DNA of 64,000 nt from Alphaproteobacteria bacterium (lineage in GTDB: Bacteria; Pseudomonadota; Alphaproteobacteria; UBA8366; GCA-2717185): the NCBI GenBank assembly GCA_021774385.1, contig JAJFJC010000261.1, positions 2,413 to 66,412 of the forward strand. Direction: 5' to 3'. Shown here piece after piece: positions 9,519 through 64,000 of the stretch (position 1 is the stretch's first letter; each line of letters opens with the position of its first letter). A program made the translations under genes and the position numbers. Below the pieces are notes generated by a model. The model searched no databases, was not told where the DNA came from, and was given only the letters and a program-made list of their open reading frames with translations.

Positions 9519-9905
9519 CTAGAATGCGCCGATTACACTCGACAATTTAGTCCGCAAAGTCGCGGCGTTAAACGGTTTGACGATATAGTTGTTAACGCCG
9601 GCTTCTTTGGCGGCAACAACATTTTCTGTCTTACTTTCGGCGGTAATCATAATGAAAGGCGTCTTTTTCAAGTTGCCGTCCGCGCGGACCTCTTTCAGAA
9701 GTTGCAGTCCTGTCATAGGGTCCATGTTCCAGTCCGAAATGACAAGGTTGAAATCGGAAGCTCTCAACTTTGTCAACGCTTCGCCGCCATCCATCGCTTC
9801 GTCTACATTGGTAAAACCAAGCTGTTTCAATAGATTGCGAATAATTCTTAACATAGTTTTATAATCATCAACGATGAGAATTGGCATATTCTTGTCAACG
9901 GCCAT
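9519..9905 (-). CDS. cheY: Single-domain CheY-like response regulator
   Basis: 128 aa. It has the receiver hallmarks ILIVDDYKTM, the phospho-acceptor context LVISDWNMDPMTG, IMITAES and YIVKPF. Confidence 0.85.
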   Translation of the reverse strand: MAVDKNMPILIVDDYKTMLRIIRNLLKQLGFTNVDEAMDGGEALTKLRASDFNLVISDWNMDPMTGLQLLKEVRADGNLKKTPFIMITAESKTENVVAAKEAGVNNYIVKPFNAATLRTKLSSVIGAF

Positions 9906-9985
9906 TTCAATAATCCCCGCTTAAGGCTTTGTCTGCGTCGCTTCAAAGGAAGCGTGTTTGATGCAGCTATAAAACCCTAAACGAG

Positions 9986-46980: not shown

Positions 46981-48357
46981 ATGAGACTACTAATCGTCGG
47001 CACCCTGGAAGGCCATATCAGCACCGCTGGAAAAATTGCAATTTCCCGAGGTGCGAAAGTCAGCCATGTCAATTCGATTGAGGAAGCGCTTGCTTCCGTT
47101 CGCTCCGGTCAAGGCGCGGAATTACTACTCGTTGATGTCAAACTCAATATCGGCGACCTAGTAACGCGTCTCGCCAGCGAGCGCATCAATGTACCCGTCG
47201 TATCGTGCGGAATCGGAACCAGCGCAGAGGCCGCGGTGGAAGCGATCCGCCAAGGCGCGCGGGAATATATACCACTCCCCCCCGACCCTGAACTGATCGC
47301 CGCCGTCCTGGAGGCCGTGGCCGCGGAAAGCAATACGATCATACATCGCGATCCGGCAATGAAAGCGGTCATTGCGCTGGCTGACCAAATCGCGCCATCC
47401 GAAGCTTCGATCCTAATCACGGGCGAATCGGGCACCGGCAAGGAATTGATGGCGCGCCATATCCACGTGAAAAGCAACAGGTCGTCAAAGGCTTTCGTTG
47501 CGGTAAATTGCGCGGCAATACCGGAGAACCTTCTTGAATCGGAATTATTCGGACACGAAAAAGGCGCTTTTACAGGAGCCGTGGCGAGGCGGATTGGTAA
47601 GTTCGAGGAAGCCGATGGTGGCACACTACTGCTTGACGAGATCAGTGAGCTGCACCCCCGCCTTCAAGCCAAACTTCTACGCGCTGTCCAAGAACGCGAA
47701 ATAGATCGAGTCGGCGGTCTAAAGCCGATCAAGATCGATGTCAGGCTCCTCGCGACATCAAACCGAAATCTTCAGGATGCAGTGAAAAACGGTGATTTTC
47801 GTGAAGATCTGTATTTTCGCCTGAATGTCGTGAATATCGGCATCCCGGCATTGAGAAACCGGCCGCAGGACATTGAAATTCTAGCCAATTTCTTTGCCGA
47901 CAAATATGCCGAGGCAAATGGCGTCGCTAGGAAACCCATAGGACAGGATACGTTGAACACGCTCCAACGACACGGCTGGCCAGGCAATGTCCGAGAGCTT
48001 GAAAACACCATGCATCGTTCCGTTCTGCTTTCACAGGGCACCGAACTCGCCATGGATGCGACGATACTTCAATTGTCTGGCATCAGCGTCGGGGAACCGG
48101 CGGCGCCGTCGTTCGCGCCAACAACACCAGCCGATTCGAATAGTACCAATGGCGAAGCCGACTTCGTGCGGCGCACCGTCGCCGAGGTCGAACGCGACCT
48201 CATCATTGACACGTTGCAACATTGCCTCGGCAACAGAACCCATGCCGCGAATATTTTAGGCATTTCAATCAGAACGCTTAGAAACAAACTAAAGCTTTAC
48301 GCCGAGAATGGCCTCGCGGTACCCATGCCCGGTGAAGTGGAGTCAACGGCACCTTAG
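46981..48357 (+). CDS. flbD: Sigma-54-dependent transcriptional activator FlbD (degenerate receiver + AAA+ + Fis-type HTH)
   Basis: 458 aa. Walker A is GESGTGKE, the GAFTGA loop is EKGAFTGAV, and the C-terminal HTH is NRTHAANILGISIRTLRNKL. The N-terminal domain (MRLLIVGTLEG...AKVSHV...REYIPLPPDPELIAAVLEAV) lacks the acidic pair and the conserved Lys. It resembles Caulobacter FlbD. Confidence 0.85.
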   Translation: MRLLIVGTLEGHISTAGKIAISRGAKVSHVNSIEEALASVRSGQGAELLLVDVKLNIGDLVTRLASERINVPVVSCGIGTSAEAAVEAIRQGAREYIPLPPDPELIAAVLEAVAAESNTIIHRDPAMKAVIALADQIAPSEASILITGESGTGKELMARHIHVKSNRSSKAFVAVNCAAIPENLLESELFGHEKGAFTGAVARRIGKFEEADGGTLLLDEISELHPRLQAKLLRAVQEREIDRVGGLKPIKIDVRLLATSNRNLQDAVKNGDFREDLYFRLNVVNIGIPALRNRPQDIEILANFFADKYAEANGVARKPIGQDTLNTLQRHGWPGNVRELENTMHRSVLLSQGTELAMDATILQLSGISVGEPAAPSFAPTTPADSNSTNGEADFVRRTVAEVERDLIIDTLQHCLGNRTHAANILGISIRTLRNKLKLYAENGLAVPMPGEVESTAP

Positions 48358-55713: not shown

Positions 55714-56139
55714 TCAGGAACTGGCAGGCTTACCACGGCTGTAAGCATTCAAACCAAGTTCATCTTGCACGATCCGATCGCGGCGACCTGCTTCCGCGGC
55801 AGCCGCGCTATCCCGGTTCTCCTTGGTAATCTCATACTTCTTTAGTGTCTCAAAAGACCGCGCTACCGCGTCGCGCGCATCCTCCACTTGCCGTGTTACC
55901 GATTCCAACTGTTCCCGTAGCGCCGTCCGGCGTTGAATAACCGCTCGCGCAAATCCACCGTAGGCATAACCACCTTCCGTGGATTGACGGGCAGCGACTT
56001 GCTCGTCCGACAATTCTTGCGCCAAACGCGCTAGGGATAGTTCAATTTGAACACGGACCTCTTCGATGTCTTTCAAGGCGCGGCGCTTCTCATCCAGCTC
56101 AAACGCGTGAATTTTTATCAGCGCCGCAATACCCTTCAT
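55714..56139 (-). CDS. fliJ: Flagellar export chaperone/stalk protein FliJ
   Basis: 141 aa with coiled-coil composition. It overlaps the fliI stop by 4 nt, in the conserved fliI-fliJ order. Confidence 0.7.
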   Translation of the reverse strand: MKGIAALIKIHAFELDEKRRALKDIEEVRVQIELSLARLAQELSDEQVAARQSTEGGYAYGGFARAVIQRRTALREQLESVTRQVEDARDAVARSFETLKKYEITKENRDSAAAAEAGRRDRIVQDELGLNAYSRGKPASS

Positions 56140-57473
56140 TGCACGTCCGCTGACAGAATTTGCGCCAATTGATCATAACCATGGTCGAGGTCCTGCTGAT
56201 CGTCCATTCCTTGAGCGAGAAACGCTTCTATCTGAGGATAAAAACCTATCGCCTCGTCGATTTCGCTATCGCTCCCGGCACGATATGCGCCAATTCTAAT
56301 AAGTTCCGCCATATCCTCATAGGTCGCGATCAAGGCACGGGCCCGATTGACGATCGTGTTCTGTTCCTCCGTGTTGCAATCCGGCAAGGTCCGCGAAACG
56401 CTCCTGAGAATATTAATTGCCGGAAAGCGGTTGCGATGTGCGATCGATCGGTCGAGCATTATATGCCCGTCCAATATACCGCGAACGGCATCGGAAATTG
56501 GCTCGTTTTCATCATCACCCTCGACTAAAACCGAGAACAATCCAGTAATGCTTCCCACACCAACGCCGGGACCGGCGCGTTCCAACAGCTTCGGCAATTC
56601 TGAAAATACCGTCGGCGTATACCCCTTGCTTGCGGGTGGCTCACCCGCCGAAAGTCCGATTTCCCGCTGCGCCATGGCAAAGCGCGTTACACTATCCATC
56701 AGACACAACACATCTTTACCCTGGTCGCGGAAATATTCCGCGACAGCCATTGTCATGTAGGCAGACTGCCGTCGCAGCAATGCCGATTGATCGGAGGTCG
56801 CCACCACGACCACGCTTCGCGCAAGGCCTTCGGGACCAAGATCATCCTCCAAAAACTCCTTCAGCTCTCGGCCCCGCTCGCCAATAAGGCCGAATACGAC
56901 AACTTCCGCCGACGTAAACCGCGCCAACATTGACAGCAGCACCGATTTTCCAACTCCCGAACCCGAGAAAATCCCCATGCGTTGTCCTCGGCAACAAGTT
57001 AGGAAGGTGTTTATCGACCGAACGCCAAGATCCAGCTTACCACCAACACGTTGGCGCGAATGCGCCGGTGGCGGTTGGTTCTTGATCGCGTAAGCTCGAT
57101 CGCCTTGCGGCAGGGCGCCCTTACCGTCGGCCGGTCCACCGAAACCGTCAACAACGCGCCCCAGCCACGCGTCGGTCGGATAGATAGTCGGCTCCGTCTC
57201 CGATAGAATCGCCCTGCAACCAAGTCCAACGCCATCCAGTGGGCGGAATGGCATCGCCAACGCGGTTCCGGAACGAAACCCCACGACTTCACACGGCACC
57301 AGCGTTCCGCCACGTGCGACAATATCGCACCGGTCGCCAACCGAAAGGTTCCCCTGCACACCGGCAATTTCCACCAACATGCCCTGAATACCGCATACGG
57401 TGCCGAAAACGGCGGCATCCGACAGTCGGTTTATATCGCCAATTAAGTTTTCCAGCGGCCCCGTCATTTCCAA
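56136..57473 (-). CDS. fliI: Flagellum-specific ATPase FliI
   Basis: 445 aa. Walker A is GSGVGKSVLL and Walker B is in VLCLMDSVTRFA. FPAINILRSVSR is F1/T3SS-ATPase-like. Confidence 0.93.
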   Translation of the reverse strand: MEMTGPLENLIGDINRLSDAAVFGTVCGIQGMLVEIAGVQGNLSVGDRCDIVARGGTLVPCEVVGFRSGTALAMPFRPLDGVGLGCRAILSETEPTIYPTDAWLGRVVDGFGGPADGKGALPQGDRAYAIKNQPPPAHSRQRVGGKLDLGVRSINTFLTCCRGQRMGIFSGSGVGKSVLLSMLARFTSAEVVVFGLIGERGRELKEFLEDDLGPEGLARSVVVVATSDQSALLRRQSAYMTMAVAEYFRDQGKDVLCLMDSVTRFAMAQREIGLSAGEPPASKGYTPTVFSELPKLLERAGPGVGVGSITGLFSVLVEGDDENEPISDAVRGILDGHIMLDRSIAHRNRFPAINILRSVSRTLPDCNTEEQNTIVNRARALIATYEDMAELIRIGAYRAGSDSEIDEAIGFYPQIEAFLAQGMDDQQDLDHGYDQLAQILSADVQ

Positions 57474-57652
57474 ACCTTAATCGTCCTTGACGCCCTGATG
57501 AAAGACCGTACGGGCTAGCGGCACTATATCCTAAATTTTGCTAAAATTTTGATTATCTGAATATCGAAACAATTTGTTAACCTTTTCTGGTCATAAATAT
57601 TAATATTGCAATGTTGGTTAAAATTAACGACGACCTGAGAAGGGAAGAGAAT

Positions 57653-58357
57653 ATGCGAGTTTTATTAGTCGAGGATGACAAAGCTATCTCCGACAGCATC
57701 CAGCTTATGCTCAAAACGGAAAATTTTGTCGTCGATTGTACCGAACTGGGCGAAGACGGCCTGGAAATCGGTAAGATCTACGATTACGACATTATCATTC
57801 TCGACCTAATGCTTCCCGACATCGACGGATATGAAGTACTGCGCCGTCTTCGGGACGCGCGTGTCGAAACACCAATTCTTATCCTCTCGGGACTGGGCGA
57901 GCTTGAAAATAAAGTCAAAGGGCTTGGATTCGGCGCCGATGACTATCTCACGAAGCCCTTCCACAAGCAGGAACTTATCGCGCGCGTCAACGCAATCATC
58001 CGTCGCTCGAAGGGCCATGCCCAATCGATCATCGAAACCGGCAAGTTGAAGGTAAATCTCGATGCCCGTACCGTCGAAGTCGACGGCAAGCCGCTTCATT
58101 TAACGGGGAAAGAATACGGCATTCTCGAATTGCTGTCCTTGCGTAAAGGCATGACCTTAACGAAGGAAATGTTCCTCAACCATCTATATGGCGGCATGGA
58201 CGAGCCGGAATTGAAGATCATCGACGTGTTCGTCTGCAAACTACGCAAGAAACTCTCTTCCGCAACCGGAGACGAAAATTATATTGAGACGGTATGGGGA
58301 CGCGGCTATGTGTTGCGCGATCCAGAAAATCTCGTTGCCAGCGCGCCCGCCGCGTAA
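57653..58357 (+). CDS. ctrA: Cell-cycle / motility master response regulator CtrA (OmpR-family)
   Basis: I chose the ATG at 57653, which has a purine-rich RBS; the track ORF starts at 57611. The product is [25 protein letters not shown]...[21 protein letters not shown]...ILILSG...[27 protein letters not shown] plus a winged helix ending [14 protein letters not shown]. This is very close to canonical CtrA. Confidence 0.9.
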
Positions 58358-58496: not shown

Positions 58497-59651
58497 ATGA
58501 GCAGCGCGGATGCCTGCTTCATTCGACACCATGACCTGTTCGACAACAGGCGACGGAGGATTTTCATCATCGAAACACGGCAACTCCGAATTTGGGCGCA
58601 GGGTGATGCCCATGTGGGACGGGATTTGGAATTCGGTCGCACAAGCTTGTCCGACGCGCTGAATCATTCGGAACGTGGCGGTGATTTGGGCGGCCCACCG
58701 TTCGATTGGGATTTTGCGATCAATGTTGGAGATTACTGCGGCTACCGAGATTTGCCGAGCGACGAGGAAGGCGCGGAAATTATCAAGCAGTTCTCGGCCC
58801 TAAAGGAACACCGCCGCGAACAAGTCTATTCGCTCTCCGGTAATCACGACCGCAATGGACTCCACCAGCCGGACGGCGAATGGTTCCAGAAGTGGATCGA
58901 CCCGATGGGAGAAAACACGGAATTCTCGGGCGTAACCCGTGCGCATTATCCCTTTCCTATTGAAGGCACCTGGGAACGCTACGCTATTGAAGCCGGCAAC
59001 ATCGTCATCCTCATGCTGAGCGACGTCAACGAGAGAAGCCACAAGAAAGGCCGGGGCGAGCTCGAAGGAAATCCCGGCGGCGTCGTATCCCATGAAACCT
59101 TCGAATGGTGGAAGGACCAAGTCCTCAAACATAAGGACAAGATCGTCATCACCGCGCACCACTACGTGCTGAAAGACACCACCTTTGCATCCGGCCTATG
59201 GGAAGGCATGCGCAGGGACGGGCAAGGAAACTGGATTCAAGATTATCACCGCTATATCGAGGAAGGATCACCCGCCGGGGCTTCCTTTCTATGCTGGGTC
59301 GGCGGCCTTTTCGATTCGGGTCAATTCGAACGGGTTCTCAAAGAAAATCCCGGCGCCGTCGATATGTGGTTCGCCGGCCACACCCATTCCAACCCAGATG
59401 ACCGCAAAGGCGGGCGCGGCTGCTTCGAACGAAAATACGGCAACACCATGTTCATGAACATCTGCGCCCTTACCCGTTACATGGTGCCCGACCATGCCAT
59501 CCCGCACAGTTGGCTGCTCACCTTCACTGAAGGCAGCGATGAAATGCGCGCGCAATGTTACATGCACACCGATGAGTACAGAGCACAAGGCTGGTACGAT
59601 CACGCGGAGCGCTCGATCAAATTAACAACGGCTTTTCGGTTTTTGAATTGA
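58497..59651 (+). CDS. Calcineurin-like metallophosphoesterase family protein
   Basis: 384 aa. The motifs occur in order: GDAHVG (DxH), NVGDYCG (GD), SGNHD (GNH) and AGHTHS (GHxH). The start codon is uncertain. Confidence 0.6.
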   Translation: MSSADACFIRHHDLFDNRRRRIFIIETRQLRIWAQGDAHVGRDLEFGRTSLSDALNHSERGGDLGGPPFDWDFAINVGDYCGYRDLPSDEEGAEIIKQFSALKEHRREQVYSLSGNHDRNGLHQPDGEWFQKWIDPMGENTEFSGVTRAHYPFPIEGTWERYAIEAGNIVILMLSDVNERSHKKGRGELEGNPGGVVSHETFEWWKDQVLKHKDKIVITAHHYVLKDTTFASGLWEGMRRDGQGNWIQDYHRYIEEGSPAGASFLCWVGGLFDSGQFERVLKENPGAVDMWFAGHTHSNPDDRKGGRGCFERKYGNTMFMNICALTRYMVPDHAIPHSWLLTFTEGSDEMRAQCYMHTDEYRAQGWYDHAERSIKLTTAFRFLN

Positions 59652-59909
59652 AGCGGTAAGTTGATCGCCCTAGTTCATTCTATTTAGGTGAGAAACTATA
59701 ATAAAATTTCTAACTTTAGAAGAATTTTCTGTTGTCTAAAAACTAAAGCATGAATTTTAATTTTCTATACTTTACTGAAAATATAGAATAAAATTAGAAA
59801 TTCCGTTGGGAAAAATACTCAAAAGATAAAATAGGAACGATCAGTCATTGAAATAAAGTTTTATTTATTTTTCATTTTTGGATGAATTTTTCATTCATGG
59901 AGATACCTG
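59652..59909. promoter_or_regulatory. Strongly AT-rich 258-bp intergenic region with small palindromes, upstream of the ODP-like/hybrid-kinase operon
   Basis: Long A/T runs contrast with the roughly 50% GC I judge by eye for the surroundings. The palindromes are TTCTAA-CT-TTAGAA (59708-59721) and ATGAAT-TTTTC-ATTCAT, the latter just before the GGAG RBS. Confidence 0.5.
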
Positions 59910-60671
59910 ATGAACATGGAGAGTACCGGCCCAAGAAATCAAAAGTATGAAAGGGCAATACTCGTTAAGGACGGTATTCATTGGGTCGGGTTTTATGACG
60001 AATTAGCACACCTTCATTGCAATCCCTACATATTGACCGATGGAAACGAAGCTGTCTTCTTCGACCCAGGCTCGTTACCTGACTTCCCACAGATTATGAG
60101 GAAGGTAATCGAAGTATCGGATCCCCTCGATATTGCATATATCGTCGTTAGTCATCAGGACCCGGATGTATGCGGCAACCTAGCGGTTGTCGAGGACGTC
60201 ATAGATCGTTCGGACATGAAGATCGTGGGACACATGAATACGATCCGCCTCATTCAGCATTATGGCGTACGATCTAAATTCTATCCGGTTGAGCAAAACG
60301 AATACCGTCTGAATTTGCGTTCTGGGCGCCAGATCGAATTTATTTTTACACCGTTTTTGCACAGTCCCGGCGCGATCGTCGCCTATGACGCCGCCACCAA
60401 AAGCCTATTCACCGGCGATATTTTCGGCGCGATATCCGACCATTGGGCATTATTTGCGGAAGACGACTACCTGACACCAATGGCGGCGTTCCATCAAGCC
60501 TATATGCCAAGCAATCAAGTACTGAAAGCGGGCTTGGAGCGCCTTGAGCGCTATGAAATCGATCAAATCCTTCCACAGCACGGCTCAATATTAAGGGGAG
60601 ATCAAATCCCCAAGGCGTTCGAGTATTTAAAGTCGCTACCATGCGGAGTCGACCTGGAAGGAAGCCAGTAA
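59910..60671 (+). CDS. Stand-alone metallo-beta-lactamase-fold di-iron domain protein (ODP-like / flavodiiron-core-like, no flavodoxin domain)
   Basis: 253 aa. The ligand-bearing motifs, in flavodiiron order, are VSHQDPDVCG, TPFLHSPG, LFTGDIFG and LPQHGS. Confidence 0.65.
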   Translation: MNMESTGPRNQKYERAILVKDGIHWVGFYDELAHLHCNPYILTDGNEAVFFDPGSLPDFPQIMRKVIEVSDPLDIAYIVVSHQDPDVCGNLAVVEDVIDRSDMKIVGHMNTIRLIQHYGVRSKFYPVEQNEYRLNLRSGRQIEFIFTPFLHSPGAIVAYDAATKSLFTGDIFGAISDHWALFAEDDYLTPMAAFHQAYMPSNQVLKAGLERLERYEIDQILPQHGSILRGDQIPKAFEYLKSLPCGVDLEGSQ

Positions 60672-60672
60672 G

Positions 60673-62430
60673 ATGGCGAGGTTCGATGTCTACCATGCCG
60701 GCGTCGACAACCTACGCGACATCGGCGCCATCAATAATTCTTTACTCGAAAAAGCTTTGGAGATGCGCGTCGTCAGCTATATGGCGCATATCAAGGGGCA
60801 ATTGCTGCTGAACACAATCCGTGAAGTCGGCCGTGAAAAGAAATCGCTACGCGCCATCAACGATCGGCTGTTGGCGGCGAATATGTTTTTGCAGGACCAA
60901 ACTCAGACCAGTAAATCCCACATCCGGCTTTTAGAAGCCGTGGAGAGCATATCGGACGGGTTTTCGCTCTATGATTCGGATAAGCGTCTTTTGATTTGCA
61001 ACAAGCATTTCGAAAAAATATGGACCGCGGTGGAAGACATCATCAAACCCGGAATTTCGCTTTTAGAGTTCACCGATGCGCTTATCGAACGGAACATAGT
61101 TGATGGCACCGCCGAGCAAATCAAACAATGGCGCGAGCAAAAGGTCTCCCAAAACGCATCGTCGGGCGAAGATTTTACCATTCGGCTAAGGAATGGCCGC
61201 TGGATCCGCAGCCGCGTTTATTCCAACGAAGACGGCGGCTTCGTGATCATCGATGCGGATATTACCGATTTAAAGGACGGCGAAGAGCAACTGAGACTGT
61301 CCCAGAGAATGGAGGCTCTAGGCCAATTGACTGCCGGCATCTCTCATGATTTCAATAATTTGCTCGCTATCATCACGGGAAATATCGAATTATCACTTTC
61401 CAACCCAAACGATCCAGATGTCAGTGATCGTCTGAAAACAGCCGACGAAGCCGCTCAAAAAAGTGCGGACCTCATCCAAAGACTACTAACTTATTCGAAG
61501 CACCAAAAATTGGAGCCCGAATTCGTCGATACCGAGAACTTGGTACTGGAGTTAATGAAACTCCTGCGCCGCGCATTGGGAGAGACCATCAAAGTCGACA
61601 CTCAATTCCAAGAGGGGTTGAGCAAAATTTTCGTCGACCGCAGTCATCTTGAGAATGCTTTGTTGAACTTGAGTATTAATGCACGCGACGCCATGCCGTC
61701 CGGCGGCAACATATTGATTAAGGCCCGAAACCAGACAATCGATGAAGATAGTATGAGTTCGAGCACGCCTAAAACATCCGGCGATTATGTCGTTATTTCC
61801 GTCTTGGATAACGGGACCGGCATTCCTGAGAATATTCTCGACCGCGTCCTTGAACCCTATTTCACGACGAAAGGGCCAGGAAAAGGCAACGGCCTCGGAC
61901 TAAGCATGGTCTACGGTTTTGTTACCCAGTCGGAGGGGCACATTGCAATCCATAGCGTTGAGGGTGAAGGGGCAAAAATTGAACTTTTTTTCCCAGTTTA
62001 CAACCAGGAGCCGGCACCGCCAGTTAGAGACGACCGGCATGAGAACGAAACGAAAGGTTCCGGTGAAAAGATTTATTTAATCGAGGATGAGGTCCTGCTC
62101 CGCGACACATTGAAAACGATGCTAACGGATCTTGGCTATACGGTTGTTGATGGAGGAGCCGGGGAAGATGCCATGACCGATAACGGCCAATGGGAAGAAA
62201 TTGACCTGCTATTGACGGATATCTATCTGCCTGACGGTAGGAATGGCAGCAAGATTGCCACTTGGGTAGAAAACACGTTTCCAAATATCAAAATTCTTTT
62301 GATGTCCGGTTATGCCAAGAGCGAAAATACGCATGCGGAAGATGGCAGCGCCCTTTTCTCCTACATCAAAAAGCCGTTCAGGAAACGTCTTCTCGCACAG
62401 AGTTTGCACGATTTGCTCAACGAAACGTGA
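60673..62430 (+). CDS. Soluble PAS-domain hybrid sensor histidine kinase / response regulator
   Basis: 585 aa with no TM segment. The PAS domain spans ISDGFSLYDSDKRLLICNKHFEKIW...IDADITDLK. The H-box is GISHDFNNLL, the N-box is LLNLSINARDAM, and the G-boxes are DNGTGI and GNGLGLS. The C-terminal receiver has IYLIEDE and LLLTDIYLPDG. The ATG is 1 nt after the upstream stop. Confidence 0.85.
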   Translation: MARFDVYHAGVDNLRDIGAINNSLLEKALEMRVVSYMAHIKGQLLLNTIREVGREKKSLRAINDRLLAANMFLQDQTQTSKSHIRLLEAVESISDGFSLYDSDKRLLICNKHFEKIWTAVEDIIKPGISLLEFTDALIERNIVDGTAEQIKQWREQKVSQNASSGEDFTIRLRNGRWIRSRVYSNEDGGFVIIDADITDLKDGEEQLRLSQRMEALGQLTAGISHDFNNLLAIITGNIELSLSNPNDPDVSDRLKTADEAAQKSADLIQRLLTYSKHQKLEPEFVDTENLVLELMKLLRRALGETIKVDTQFQEGLSKIFVDRSHLENALLNLSINARDAMPSGGNILIKARNQTIDEDSMSSSTPKTSGDYVVISVLDNGTGIPENILDRVLEPYFTTKGPGKGNGLGLSMVYGFVTQSEGHIAIHSVEGEGAKIELFFPVYNQEPAPPVRDDRHENETKGSGEKIYLIEDEVLLRDTLKTMLTDLGYTVVDGGAGEDAMTDNGQWEEIDLLLTDIYLPDGRNGSKIATWVENTFPNIKILLMSGYAKSENTHAEDGSALFSYIKKPFRKRLLAQSLHDLLNET

Positions 62431-62610: not shown

Positions 62611-64000
62611 ATGTCAGACATTCGGAACGTATTGTTAATCGTCGTCGATCAGTGGCGGGGCGATACGGTTTCCTATCTCGATCACCCCTGCATCAAGACG
62701 CCGCATCTGGATGCGCTGTGCGGCGACGGCGTCACATTCCGCAATCATTACGTACAAGGCGTGCCCTGTGCGCCAGCGCGGGCCTCGTTGCTAACCGGTC
62801 AGTACATGATGACGCATAGGGTCGTGCAGAACGGCATCCCGATGGATGCACGCCATAACAATTTGGCCTATGAACTGAGAGCATTGGGGTACGATCCCGC
62901 GTTGGTCGGCTATACCACCACGACGCACGATCCCCGTGAAATTCCCGCGAACGACCCCCGATTCAGCGCCTTGGGCGATCTCATGCCGGGCTGGAACCCA
63001 ATCGCCCGTCTCGACCCTGCACGCCGCCCCTATTTCGACTGGTTACGGCAACATGGCGTGGACGTACCAACAGACCCGGATGATATCTGGTTGCCCGCAG
63101 ATTCAAGTGCCACATCAGCCTCGCGCATTGCCGCCGAACATTCCGATACCAGCTATGCCACCGAACATGGACTGGCCTACCTGCGGGGGATGGAAGGCCA
63201 GCCCTGGGCGTTACATTTAGGATATTACCGTCCACACCCACCGTTCATCGCACCATCGCCCTATAACAGCTCGGTTGATCCAGCAGACGTCCCCGCCCCT
63301 ATTCGGGCCGCCAACGCGGCGGTCGAAGGCGAACAACATCCGATGCTCAACCATTATTTGGGCTATATTAAGCAGCGGAAATTCTTCCAGAACGGGGCCG
63401 GACTTGGCAGCGAAATGGACGAGGGAGCCGTGCGGAACATGCGGGCGGCCTATTATGGGCTGATCACCGAAGTCGACGATCATGTGGGACGCGTAATCGC
63501 GTATCTGAAGCAAAGCGGCCAGTACGACAACACGTTGATCGTCTTCACGTCCGACCATGGCGAGCAGCTCGGCGACCATCACCTGCTCGGCAAACTCGGT
63601 TACTTCGATCAATCCTTTCATATTCCGTTGGTCATTCGCGATCCCCGCGCGGAAGCAAATTCAACGCGCGGCGATATCGTCGATGCGTTTACCGAAGCGG
63701 TCGACGTCATGCCAACGATTCTCGACTGGCTGGACAAACCTAATCCTCGTGACTGCGCGGGGGCCTCGCTAATCCCCTTTGTCAAAGGTGAAACGCCGGC
63801 GGACTGGCGGCAGGAGGTGCATTGGGAGTACGACTTCCGCCCCTACTATGCGGACGCGGGAACGCCACCGCCCTTCGGCCTATCGATCGACCAATGTGCG
63901 CTATCGGTCATTCGAGACACGAAATACAAATATGTCCATTTCGACGCGCTGCCGCCACTCTTCTTCGATTTGGAAGCCGACCCGCATGAGTTCCGGAACC
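62611..64000 (+). CDS. Sulfatase-family (alkaline-phosphatase superfamily) enzyme, partial (3' end beyond the window)
   Basis: Absent from the track because it is open at the window edge. My translation from the ATG at 62611 is MSDIRNVLLIVVDQWRGD...GVPCAPARASLLTGQY, which carries the CxPxR formylglycine motif. Later it reads VFTSDHGEQLGDHHLLGK. Confidence 0.8.
   Translation, partial: MSDIRNVLLIVVDQWRGDTVSYLDHPCIKTPHLDALCGDGVTFRNHYVQGVPCAPARASLLTGQYMMTHRVVQNGIPMDARHNNLAYELRALGYDPALVGYTTTTHDPREIPANDPRFSALGDLMPGWNPIARLDPARRPYFDWLRQHGVDVPTDPDDIWLPADSSATSASRIAAEHSDTSYATEHGLAYLRGMEGQPWALHLGYYRPHPPFIAPSPYNSSVDPADVPAPIRAANAAVEGEQHPMLNHYLGYIKQRKFFQNGAGLGSEMDEGAVRNMRAAYYGLITEVDDHVGRVIAYLKQSGQYDNTLIVFTSDHGEQLGDHHLLGKLGYFDQSFHIPLVIRDPRAEANSTRGDIVDAFTEAVDVMPTILDWLDKPNPRDCAGASLIPFVKGETPADWRQEVHWEYDFRPYYADAGTPPPFGLSIDQCALSVIRDTKYKYVHFDALPPLFFDLEADPHEFRN

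Follow-up and report, generated by a model that had tools for sequence, protein, structure and literature searches.

We have analyzed a two-gene unit in a 64,000-nt stretch of alphaproteobacterial DNA, hereafter called the window. The first gene (59910..60671, + strand) is an ORF for a 253-aa protein that Pfam assigns to the ODP family of di-iron sensors (PF19583). The second (60673..62430, + strand) encodes a 585-aa soluble hybrid histidine kinase with the order NMOD-PAS_7-HisKA-HATPase_c-REC, of which all but NMOD are Pfam domains; NMOD is an N-terminal helical family defined in this analysis. The two genes meet at a TAA-G-ATG junction (60669..60675, + strand), which in the sequence reads ...CAG TAA G ATG..., with the ODP stop codon at 60669-60671 and the kinase ATG at 60673. 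The 1-nt gap reported in the first-pass annotation can thus be read directly from the sequence. This layout is consistent with translational coupling, and the purine run GGAAGGAAG in the 3' end of the ODP gene could serve as the ribosome-binding site of the kinase.

The ODP gene is preceded by an AT-rich leader or promoter region of 258 bp (59652..59909, + strand; 26% GC against 53% in the window), in which a Shine-Dalgarno-like GGAG can be read at 59900..59903 (+ strand), 6 nt 5' of the start codon. The leader gave no Rfam match at E<=1, and a riboswitch or other known RNA was dropped as a candidate for that reason. No FNR-type box was found in 59652-59909 when up to 2 mismatches were allowed, promoter and terminator scans gave counts at or below the shuffle expectation, and the repeats in the leader are short, AT-rich and unconvincing. 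Between this region and ctrA (57611..58357; NCBIfam NF045991, 418 bits, cutoff 350) lies a Metallophos gene for a phosphoesterase (58497..59651). The end of ctrA is 1552 nt upstream of the pair, in agreement with the initial estimate of roughly 1.5 kb, and the flagellar genes for FliI, FlhA, FlbD, FliF and FlgE are also upstream; a PehA-like ester hydrolase gene comes after the pair. The CtrA of the window is of the Rhodobacterales type and its FlbD of the Caulobacter type.

The 253-aa protein is a true member of the ODP family, with the ligand set and the fold of that family. It matches PF19583 end to end (model positions 1-194 of 194, ODP residues 35-225), with E=2.3e-62 and a score of 210.8 bits where the cutoff is 27.2. 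Among PDB sequences it matches 6qrq (8e-42) and 6qnm/6r9n (6e-27), and every motif residue is aligned. The AF2 model (pLDDT 88.9) has one MBL-like domain, and a flavodoxin domain is absent from both the model and the Pfam assignments, as expected of the stand-alone, single-domain protein first described. A Foldseek search with this model gave as best matches the T. maritima ODP (TM 0.81-0.83) and the peroxo-diiron ODP of T. denticola (TM 0.79); the top 10 are ODP chains throughout (TM 0.77-0.83), and the cores of flavodiiron proteins (FDPs) rank behind them. The protein has no transmembrane segment, the maximum 19-residue Kyte-Doolittle mean being 1.04.

Four motifs occur in the order given by the first-pass annotation: SHQDPDVCG (residues 81-89), TPFLHSPG (147-154), LFTGDIFG (166-173) and LPQHGS (221-226). 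The predicted metal ligands within them are H82 (60153-60155), D84 (60159-60161), D86 (60165-60167), H151 (60360-60362), D170 (60417-60419) and Q223/H224 (60576-60581), all encoded on the + strand, and these residues are invariant in 30 of 30 homologues. Together they form the ODP-type set H-x-D-x-D-V...H...D...Q-H, which aligns with both solved ODPs (6qrq, 6qnm), and V87 stands where an FDP has its third His. The distinction between the ODP-type and flavodiiron signatures, including the Gln replacement, follows PMC7785958. The comparison of metal sites on a structure model that had been suggested as a check therefore gave ODP-type ligands and, as nearest folds, ODPs before FDPs, so that the cautious label "ODP-like" can be made definite.

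In the flavodiiron proteins (FprA, ROO and the flavorubredoxin NorV) a homologous di-iron MBL-like domain carries the ligand motifs in the same order, but it is accompanied by a flavodoxin domain and has H-x-E-x-D-H and G-H where the window ODP has H-x-D-x-D-V and Q-H. The NCBIfam flavorubredoxin models score only 33-36 bits against the window ODP (cutoffs 635-711), which places it outside the flavodiiron proteins. Likeness to the ODPs of T. denticola (TDE2498) and T. maritima (PF19583; 6r9n, 6qnm, 6qrq, 6qwo) extends to the length of ~250 aa, the single MBL-like domain, the HQDPD / H / D / QH motifs, a C-terminal CGxD and an adjoining gene for a signalling partner, which in the window is the hybrid kinase gene 1 nt downstream. 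Identity to these proteins is only 27-32%, however, and residues 87-111 after ligand motif 2 (DVCGNLAVVEDV...H108) are nearly invariant in the clade of the window ODP and different in the two solved ODPs. Binding of O2 by the T. denticola protein and its partnership with a chemoreceptor, both cited as background in the first-pass annotation, are backed by PDB 6r9n ("Peroxy diiron species of chemotaxis sensor ODP") and PMC7666581. By homology, the window ODP would likewise bind two Fe atoms and O2 as a peroxo adduct.

The kinase has the architecture originally noted, and each element could be located. The PAS_7 domain spans residues 90-204 (60940..61284; PF12860, E=6.5e-16) and the Pfam-defined kinase core comprises HisKA (residues 216-278) and a complete HATPase_c (residues 322-442; core at 61318..61998). 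The predicted phospho-His is H225 (61345-61347) in the HDFNN-type H-box GISHDFNNLL. The receiver covers residues 467-578 (62071..62406; PF00072, E=2.6e-13), with D516 (62218-62220) as predicted phospho-Asp; the acidic pair E471/D472 and K567 are also present. All of these features are on the + strand, and the domain matches of both proteins are far beyond chance. With a maximum 19-residue Kyte-Doolittle mean of 0.88 the kinase also has no transmembrane segment, so that both proteins lack one, as first noted. Among NCBIfam models that of the PRK13557 subfamily matches the kinase best (346 bits, under the cutoff of 631), and Pfam finds no MCPsignal domain of the kind a chemotaxis-type partner would carry.

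The part of the kinase that had been called a coiled-coil N-terminus is indeed predicted to be helical, but that label overlooked a specific conserved module. AF2 predicts a continuous helix over residues 2-94 (60676-60954, + strand), with pLDDT ~90 at residues 11-70 in a monomer model made from a 5-sequence alignment (pTM 0.35). This helix encloses NMOD, a module common to ODP partners that occupies residues ~10-67 (core 22-59) at 60700..60873 (+ strand). NMOD heads 73 of the 78 downstream partners of ODP homologues regardless of their output, with the ODP gene upstream on the same strand, as in the window. Across the family K41 is conserved at 100%, E26 at 97%, L44/L45 at 96-97% and M31 at 91%. 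The window kinase matches the NMOD profile with 74 bits (E=1.8e-22) and keeps the signature E26, M31-R32, Y36, K41, L44-L45 and T48; it departs from consensus in having N22 for R, V33 for C, L46 for T and E55 for S. Conservation is found on every face of the helix (helical moment 0.07), unlike in a plain coiled coil. No Pfam model corresponds to NMOD, and nothing consistent was matched even at E<=1.

A search of 1.84 billion proteins yielded 154 cluster representatives with NMOD, always at the extreme N-terminus, and kinases make up 84 of 104 NMOD proteins from this search. Against a word-indexed set of 5.8 billion proteins the profile found 3 short proteins only. NMOD is absent from all 119 of the closest homologues of the kinase body. 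When metagenomic loci were instead collected by NMOD alone (n=21), an ODP gene lay immediately upstream in 20 of the 20 that could be tested. NMOD also occurs as stand-alone proteins of ~100-135 aa, one of which (P0121) has an ODP gene on one side and kinase genes on the other. The single MCP partner sampled (n=1) lacks the module. The co-occurrence of ODP and NMOD is thus obligate and runs in both directions. Fewer than 70 aa separate NMOD from the output domain in 30 of the 45 kinases and 14 of the 19 cyclases, so that NMOD is the sole input region of those partners. Divergence of ODP and of NMOD is correlated (Mantel r=0.59, 0 of 2000 permutations), a result that co-inheritance of neighbouring genes would give by itself.

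The coupling of an ODP to a kinase rather than an MCP, which the first-pass annotation had proposed for this locus, is also the commonest layout in the clade of the window ODP. At 78 related loci the gene directly 3' of ODP encodes a histidine kinase in 46 cases (19 of them hybrid), a GGDEF protein in 19 (8 with EAL) and an MCP in 1. The neighbourhood survey recommended at the outset has therefore found kinase partners in relatives, and conservation of the pair, on which the proposal had been staked, is borne out. The distance from the ODP stop to the start of the same-strand partner is mostly -4 to +6 nt at these loci; in Mariprofundus erugo, for example, the genes for ODP and a PAS hybrid kinase share 4 nt. 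The outputs of the partners are not homologous to one another and include HisKA kinases, HisKA_2/HWE kinases, GGDEF and GGDEF-EAL proteins. Most hosts come from redox gradients: Zetaproteobacteria, tubeworm symbionts, anammox bacteria, Nitrospinota, methanotrophs, magnetotactic bacteria and Sulfurimonas. One apparent natural fusion of ODP to its partner (P0074, 372 aa) proved to be only an over-extended ORF call.

The best relative is 63-64% identical, and no matches were found in Rhodobacterales. GC3 is 0.547 for the ODP gene and 0.573 for the kinase gene, inside the range of the window (0.585 +/- 0.043), and the lower total GC of the two genes stems from codon position 2. Horizontal transfer, if any, has therefore left no compositional signal, and a recent transfer diagnosed by composition was rejected. 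It is the taxonomic isolation of the pair that suggests its acquisition.

We consider it fairly probable that ODP and kinase form a two-protein sensor-kinase unit in which ODP signals through NMOD. ODP would first bind Fe(II) and next O2, the latter as a peroxo adduct, as homology with the T. denticola and T. maritima proteins predicts, and its metal or oxygen state would be relayed by binding to the NMOD helix (residues ~10-67) of a dimeric soluble kinase; NMOD is probably the docking site of ODP. The helix is predicted to run unbroken from NMOD into PAS_7 and onward to the DHp/CA core, and because of this continuity binding or release of ODP would shift autophosphorylation of H225. Phosphate would then pass from H225 to D516 of the receiver and on to an Hpt protein or response regulator. 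The analysis establishes family membership, ligand conservation, fold, gene coupling and the co-occurrence of ODP with NMOD; iron and O2 binding by the window ODP, its physical contact with NMOD, the sign of regulation and the downstream target are inferred from homology and gene-context statistics. The kinase's own PAS_7 could be the real sensor or an additional one.

More broadly, ODP and NMOD may form a portable input cassette, one that in the course of evolution has been combined with kinases, hybrid kinases and diguanylate cyclases/phosphodiesterases and that here would sit on a PAS_7 hybrid-kinase body of the alphaproteobacterial type. We give roughly even chances to the full form of this proposal: that the cassette is dedicated to O2/Fe(II), that NMOD is an undescribed, state-dependent "ODP-receiver" helix for histidine kinases and c-di-GMP enzymes, and that the window holds a recent-looking graft, with an alphaproteobacterial PAS_7 hybrid kinase as recipient, within a lineage where the cassette has not been seen otherwise.

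NMOD might instead be a mere dimerisation or signalling helix that is co-inherited with ODP, while ODP itself touches the DHp/CA core, PAS or GGDEF, or acts via a diffusible product. The module is after all predicted as a simple long helix, the correlated divergence could come from linkage alone, and the MCP that partners the T. denticola ODP has no NMOD, from which it follows that ODPs can signal without one. However, NMOD is the only element common to partners with non-homologous outputs and to the small stand-alone proteins; every face of it is conserved, one Lys being invariant and one Glu nearly so; and it is essentially never found without an upstream ODP and is missing from ordinary relatives of the kinase. 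These observations make a mere dimerisation helix unlikely. Less likely again is an enzymatic role for the ODP-like protein, as an O2/NO-scavenging di-iron oxidoreductase or as an MBL hydrolase, with no link beyond co-transcription to a kinase that senses through its own PAS. The fold and ligands shared with flavodiiron O2/NO reductases and the PAS_7 of the kinase would fit such a role, but the protein lacks a flavodoxin or rubredoxin domain as electron source, its ligand signature is of the ODP and not the FDP type, and the solved homologues carry the annotation of chemotaxis sensors. Moreover, a sensor domain besides NMOD is absent from 30 of the 45 kinase and 14 of the 19 cyclase partners, which leaves ODP as the sole candidate sensor at those loci.

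The first-pass annotation had further suggested that the pair feeds O2 or NO information into motility or CtrA control, which would account for its location. This suggestion had adjacency in its favour, with ctrA 1.55 kb upstream and the FliI, FlhA, FlbD, FliF and FlgE genes beyond, together with a kinase core that is broadly CckA-like in architecture (292 bits to a CckA model), but it fared poorly. The Metallophos gene and the 258-bp AT-rich gap intervene on one side and the PehA-like hydrolase gene flanks the pair on the other. No TTAA-N7-TTAA box was found near the pair (2 sites occur elsewhere in the window, against 0.7 expected), and regulation of the pair by CtrA was rejected on this ground. 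The arrangement is not conserved either: neither CtrA orthologues nor structural genes of the flagellum occur in the 103 further ODP/NMOD loci (947 kb). No ChpT-like or other Hpt partner and no cognate response regulator of the kinase were identified. The kinase shares with CckA the PAS-HisKA-HATPase_c-REC hybrid layout, an alphaproteobacterial host and a nearby ctrA, but it lacks transmembrane segments and has NMOD and an ODP partner. Its scores to the CckA equivalog models (292 and 285 bits) are far under the cutoffs of 1000, and, with no membrane anchor, its identification as CckA was rejected. We regard a role for the pair in CtrA or flagellar control as improbable; the proximity of ctrA appears to be coincidence, and on present evidence the locus does not reveal an oxygen input to that control.

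The proposed ODP-NMOD unit resembles in its working the H-NOX/HnoK and NosP/NahK systems, in which the gene for a small soluble metalloprotein sensor lies beside that of a soluble kinase and the sensor is thought to control the kinase by direct binding. The sensors themselves are unrelated, being heme proteins as against a di-iron MBL fold, no counterpart of NMOD was identified in those systems, and the NahK-family models match the window kinase weakly (97 bits, cutoff 1500). The T. denticola ODP differs in its output, since its partner is an MCP feeding CheA, whereas the window ODP is paired with a soluble hybrid histidine kinase bearing NMOD.

The association of ODPs with signalling outside chemotaxis is not new. 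Muok et al. 2019 (PNAS), whose content is taken here second-hand from PMC7319448, PMC7666581, PMC6978683 and PMC7785958, is summarized in the TREND paper (PMC7319448) as reporting ODPs in operons with Pkinase, GGDEF/EAL, START and HD domains, ODPs fused to signalling domains, and their recruitment to various pathways. That summary omits histidine kinases by name, yet these are the main partner in the clade of the window ODP. The summaries of Muok et al. 2019 describe no conserved N-terminal module of the partners, although the original may already note it. The initial belief that the pairing is uncharacterised holds insofar as a literature search found no paper characterising an ODP-kinase pair and no experiments on such pairs, but it needs qualification, as ODPs in non-chemotaxis signalling operons had been reported in 2019 according to PMC7319448. 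As far as these summaries go, the kinase-coupled form of ODP and NMOD itself appear to be uncharacterised.

To our knowledge ODP is among very few non-heme O2/Fe(II) sensors in bacteria, and we know of studies of its wiring only for chemotaxis (MCP/CheA). As the window locus and ~100 relatives show, one large ODP clade usually has a two-component kinase or a c-di-GMP enzyme as its output. The NMOD helix shared by these partners leads to a concrete hypothesis on the way in which the state of a stand-alone di-iron sensor may reach a kinase, and the combined NMOD/ODP sequence signature helps to annotate such sensors in iron oxidisers, symbionts, anammox bacteria and methanotrophs.

[quoted passage not shown] They are tightly coupled, the junction reading TAA-G-ATG with a gap of 1 nt; a GGAG lies 6 nt 5' of the ODP ATG, and a GGAAGGAAG run within the 3' end of the ODP gene precedes the kinase ATG. 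The four motifs originally read in the small protein are all present in the same order, and neither protein contains a TM-compatible hydrophobic stretch (maximum 19-residue Kyte-Doolittle mean 1.04 for the ODP and 0.88 for the kinase). The pair was thus correctly observed and identified.

The small protein belongs to the ODP family, matching Pfam PF19583 end to end (E=2.3e-62; 210.8 bits, cutoff 27.2). Its closest solved relatives by sequence are two ODPs (6qrq/6qwo, 8e-42; 6qnm/6r9n, 6e-27), followed by flavodiiron proteins at ~1e-9. Residues H82, D84, D86, H151, D170, Q223 and H224 align with conserved ODP motif residues, and the ligand residues are invariant across 30 homologues. Whereas flavodiiron proteins carry a third His in motif 2, this protein has V87 at that position and Q223 directly before the last His, a ligand arrangement specific to ODPs (PMC7785958); it also has no flavodoxin domain. 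The structural comparison that had been proposed likewise favours ODPs over flavodiiron proteins: the AF2 model (pLDDT 88.9, pTM 0.88) gave TM scores of 0.81-0.83 to the Thermotoga maritima ODP and 0.79 to the peroxo-diiron ODP of Treponema denticola, both of which outrank flavodiiron cores. By homology, the protein would be expected to bind metal and O2.

The window ODP is a singleton, and its nearest relatives are 63-64% identical. A search of one genome per species (185,579 species) found 115 relatives, of which the best 80 were inspected. The hosts of these 80 are Zetaproteobacteria, tubeworm and bivalve sulfur-oxidising symbionts, Sedimenticola, anammox Planctomycetes, Nitrospinota, Nitrospirota, methanotrophs, Campylobacterota, Myxococcota, a few Rhodospirillaceae, Magnetococcales and spirochaetes; no Rhodobacterales occur among them. 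Specialists of oxic-anoxic gradients are strongly enriched in loci L004-L083 (Zetaproteobacteria including Mariprofundus, tubeworm/bivalve symbionts, Sedimenticola, Scalindua, Anammoxibacter, Nitrospinota, methanotrophs, magnetotactic lineages and Sulfurimonas).

A same-strand ORF directly follows the ODP gene in 78 of the 80 loci, usually with a gap of -4 to +6 nt. In Mariprofundus erugo the ODP gene overlaps a PAS hybrid kinase gene by 4 nt, and in the Escarpia symbiont it overlaps the gene for a GGDEF-EAL protein. Histidine kinases account for 46 of the 78 partners (45 of HisKA type and one of HisKA_2/HWE type; 19 are REC-bearing hybrids); a further 19 are GGDEF proteins, of which 8 carry EAL, and one is an MCP. 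A kinase as the next gene is therefore the commonest arrangement in the clade. Since kinase partners recur across the ODP relatives the pairing is conserved, and the suggestion that the ODP is wired to a phosphorelay is supported and can be extended to its clade in general.

When the 78 partners were aligned, conservation was confined to the first ~60 residues of each protein. We call this N-terminal helix NMOD (residues ~10-67 of the window kinase, core 22-59). It was detected in 72 partners by single-sequence search with kinase residues 1-88 and in 73 by profile, and it falls outside every Pfam model, even at E<=1. The consensus of the core reads NRxLxEKALxMRCxAYLxxVKAxLLTxTIxExxxSKKxL, with K41 (window numbering) conserved in 100%, E26 in 97%, L44/L45 in 96-97% and M31 in 91%. 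The window kinase keeps E26, L29, M31, R32, Y36, K41, L44, L45, T48, I49, E51, K56 and L59 and departs from the consensus at N22, V33, L46 and E55. AF2, run on a monomer with a shallow alignment, predicts one unbroken helix over residues 2-94 that runs into the PAS domain (pLDDT ~90 for residues 11-70). Conservation is distributed over the entire helix (helical moment 0.07); this suggests burial on several sides and speaks against an ordinary a/d coiled coil.

The co-occurrence of ODP and NMOD is obligate in both directions. When 21 metagenomic loci were fetched by NMOD peptide patterns alone, an ODP gene ended just upstream of NMOD in all 20 with enough sequence; in the 21st, NMOD lies 44 nt from the contig end. 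NMOD is also rare: with a 3-sequence profile, HMMER run exhaustively over 1.84 billion cluster representatives (E<=0.001) gave 154 matches, always within the first ~95 residues. The 104 matches of at least 200 amino acids include 84 histidine kinases (30 hybrid, 35 with PAS) and 7 GGDEF proteins, and no MCP domain is among the 25 families listed for them. The single MCP partner in our sample (L082, 6617-8659; 681 amino acids, HAMP and MCPsignal) lacks NMOD and adjoins the most divergent ODP (43% identity), which fits MCP-linked and NMOD-linked ODPs as separate sub-families. The legend of Fig. S1 in the TREND paper (PMC7319448) ascribes "a distinct sequence pattern" to one group of MCPs; this might be a docking element analogous to NMOD.

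In 30 of the 45 kinases and 14 of the 19 cyclases, the linker from NMOD to the output domain is shorter than 70 residues, so that NMOD is their sole input region. Across phyla the ODPs are much more conserved (55-63% identity) than NMOD (25-48%), and this steady ODP identity implies strong constraint on the ODP clade together with lateral spread. Pairwise identities of ODP and NMOD correlate (r=0.59; 0 of 2000 Mantel permutations as high), a relationship that linkage alone could explain. Stand-alone NMOD proteins also exist, so NMOD may work in trans as a small adaptor. The profile found one of 128 amino acids (P0121; L084, 4001-4387), with an ODP gene on one side and two kinase genes on the other; it overlaps the next gene by 4 nt. 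Others lie at L019 6738-7142 and L045 6738-7040, and their size is ~100-135 amino acids; 24 of 148 retrieved NMOD representatives have at most 180 amino acids, possibly including fragments.

Within the NMOD-linked clade, ODP residues 87-118 (DVCGNLAVVEDV...H108...RLI.HYG), directly after ligand motif 2, are nearly invariant; the clade-specific segment DVCGNLAVVEDVI...H108...RLIxHYG (residues 82-118) corresponds to 60153-60260 on the forward strand. In contrast, the two solved MCP-type ODPs, of T. maritima and T. denticola, have DVTSGILLWLSI and DVSSGIALWLGI, respectively. Speculatively, the segment is a candidate clade-specific partner surface.

Downstream of NMOD, the forward-strand kinase gene encodes the Pfam domains PAS_7 (residues 90-204), HisKA with H225 (216-278), HATPase_c (322-442) and REC (467-578), in which E471/D472, D516 and K567 were located. 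Scores of 292 and 285 bits, where the CckA cutoffs are 1000, show that the protein is not CckA. In a search of 5.8 billion proteins its nearest relatives, mostly alphaproteobacterial PAS hybrid kinases, were only 35-47% identical at about 65-88% query coverage. NMOD is absent from all 119 closest homologues of the kinase body, examined as a negative control. The kinase appears to be chimeric, joining an NMOD typical of ODP partners to a body whose alphaproteobacterial relatives lack it. Besides CtrA, the sole other receiver-like ORF in the window (9522-9920, reverse strand, 50 kb from the pair) has a weak receiver-domain match, with E=1.3e-05 to that of the kinase.

The first-pass annotation had also proposed O2/NO input into CtrA or motility. 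The adjacency is real: ctrA (418 bits to NF045991, cutoff 350) ends 1552 nt upstream of the ODP gene, and the FliI, FlhA, FlbD, FliF and FlgE genes lie further upstream. However, a Metallophos gene intervenes, no CtrA box was found near the pair, and the 103 other ODP/NMOD loci (947 kb in total) contain neither a CtrA orthologue nor a flagellar structural gene, so the proposal is not supported beyond adjacency. The pair instead looks like a mobile cassette that is at its present site by chance, with no compositional sign of recent transfer (GC3 0.55 and 0.57 vs 0.585 +/- 0.043). Both flanking genes encode phosphoester or sulfoester hydrolases, namely the Metallophos protein (58497-59651; 384 amino acids, without NCBIfam match) and a PehA-like phosphoric/sulfuric ester hydrolase (62611-64000; 719 bits, truncated at the window end), and the pair may have been inserted into a phosphorus-scavenging neighbourhood. 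The 258-bp intergenic leader 5' of the ODP gene (59652-59909) has 26% GC, against 53% in the window, and short AT-rich direct and inverted repeats. It has no Rfam match, CtrA box or FNR box and may serve as a promoter or bind nucleoid proteins. The flagellar cluster (46981-48357 and 56136-57473) includes a Caulobacter-type sigma-54 regulator FlbD (748.3 bits, cutoff 750) and a clade-3 FliI, and the window CtrA passes the Rhodobacterales-type model. The host could accordingly be a marine alphaproteobacterium of Hyphomonadaceae or Rhodobacterales grade.

H-NOX/HnoK and NosP/NahK are sensor-kinase operons and, while not homologous, are functionally the closest analogues of the ODP-kinase pair. 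Recruitment of ODPs to non-chemotaxis signalling is already published: as summarised in the TREND paper (PMC7319448), Muok et al. 2019 described ODPs in operons with MCPs (in two gene orders) and with Pkinase, GGDEF/EAL, START and HD proteins, as well as fused to signalling domains. That summary, our source for Muok et al. 2019, makes no mention of histidine kinases, and among the papers searched we found none that characterises an ODP paired with a kinase or a cyclase, or a conserved N-terminus in ODP partners.

The model with the best support runs in three steps. The ODP would act as the sensor, by homology for Fe(II)/O2; the solved T. denticola ODP (6r9n) has a peroxo-diiron centre and is an O2 sensor for chemotaxis (PMC7666581). 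NMOD would be the ODP-receiving helix of a dimeric partner, and a change there would travel down the unbroken helix, via PAS_7, to the DHp/CA core, with phosphotransfer from H225 to D516 and on to some Hpt protein or response regulator. Physical contact at NMOD, the sign of its effect and the target of the relay are parts of the model that we infer. What is new beyond the first-pass annotation is NMOD itself, an unannotated module that is a specific mark of ODP partners and yields a testable docking hypothesis for ODP.
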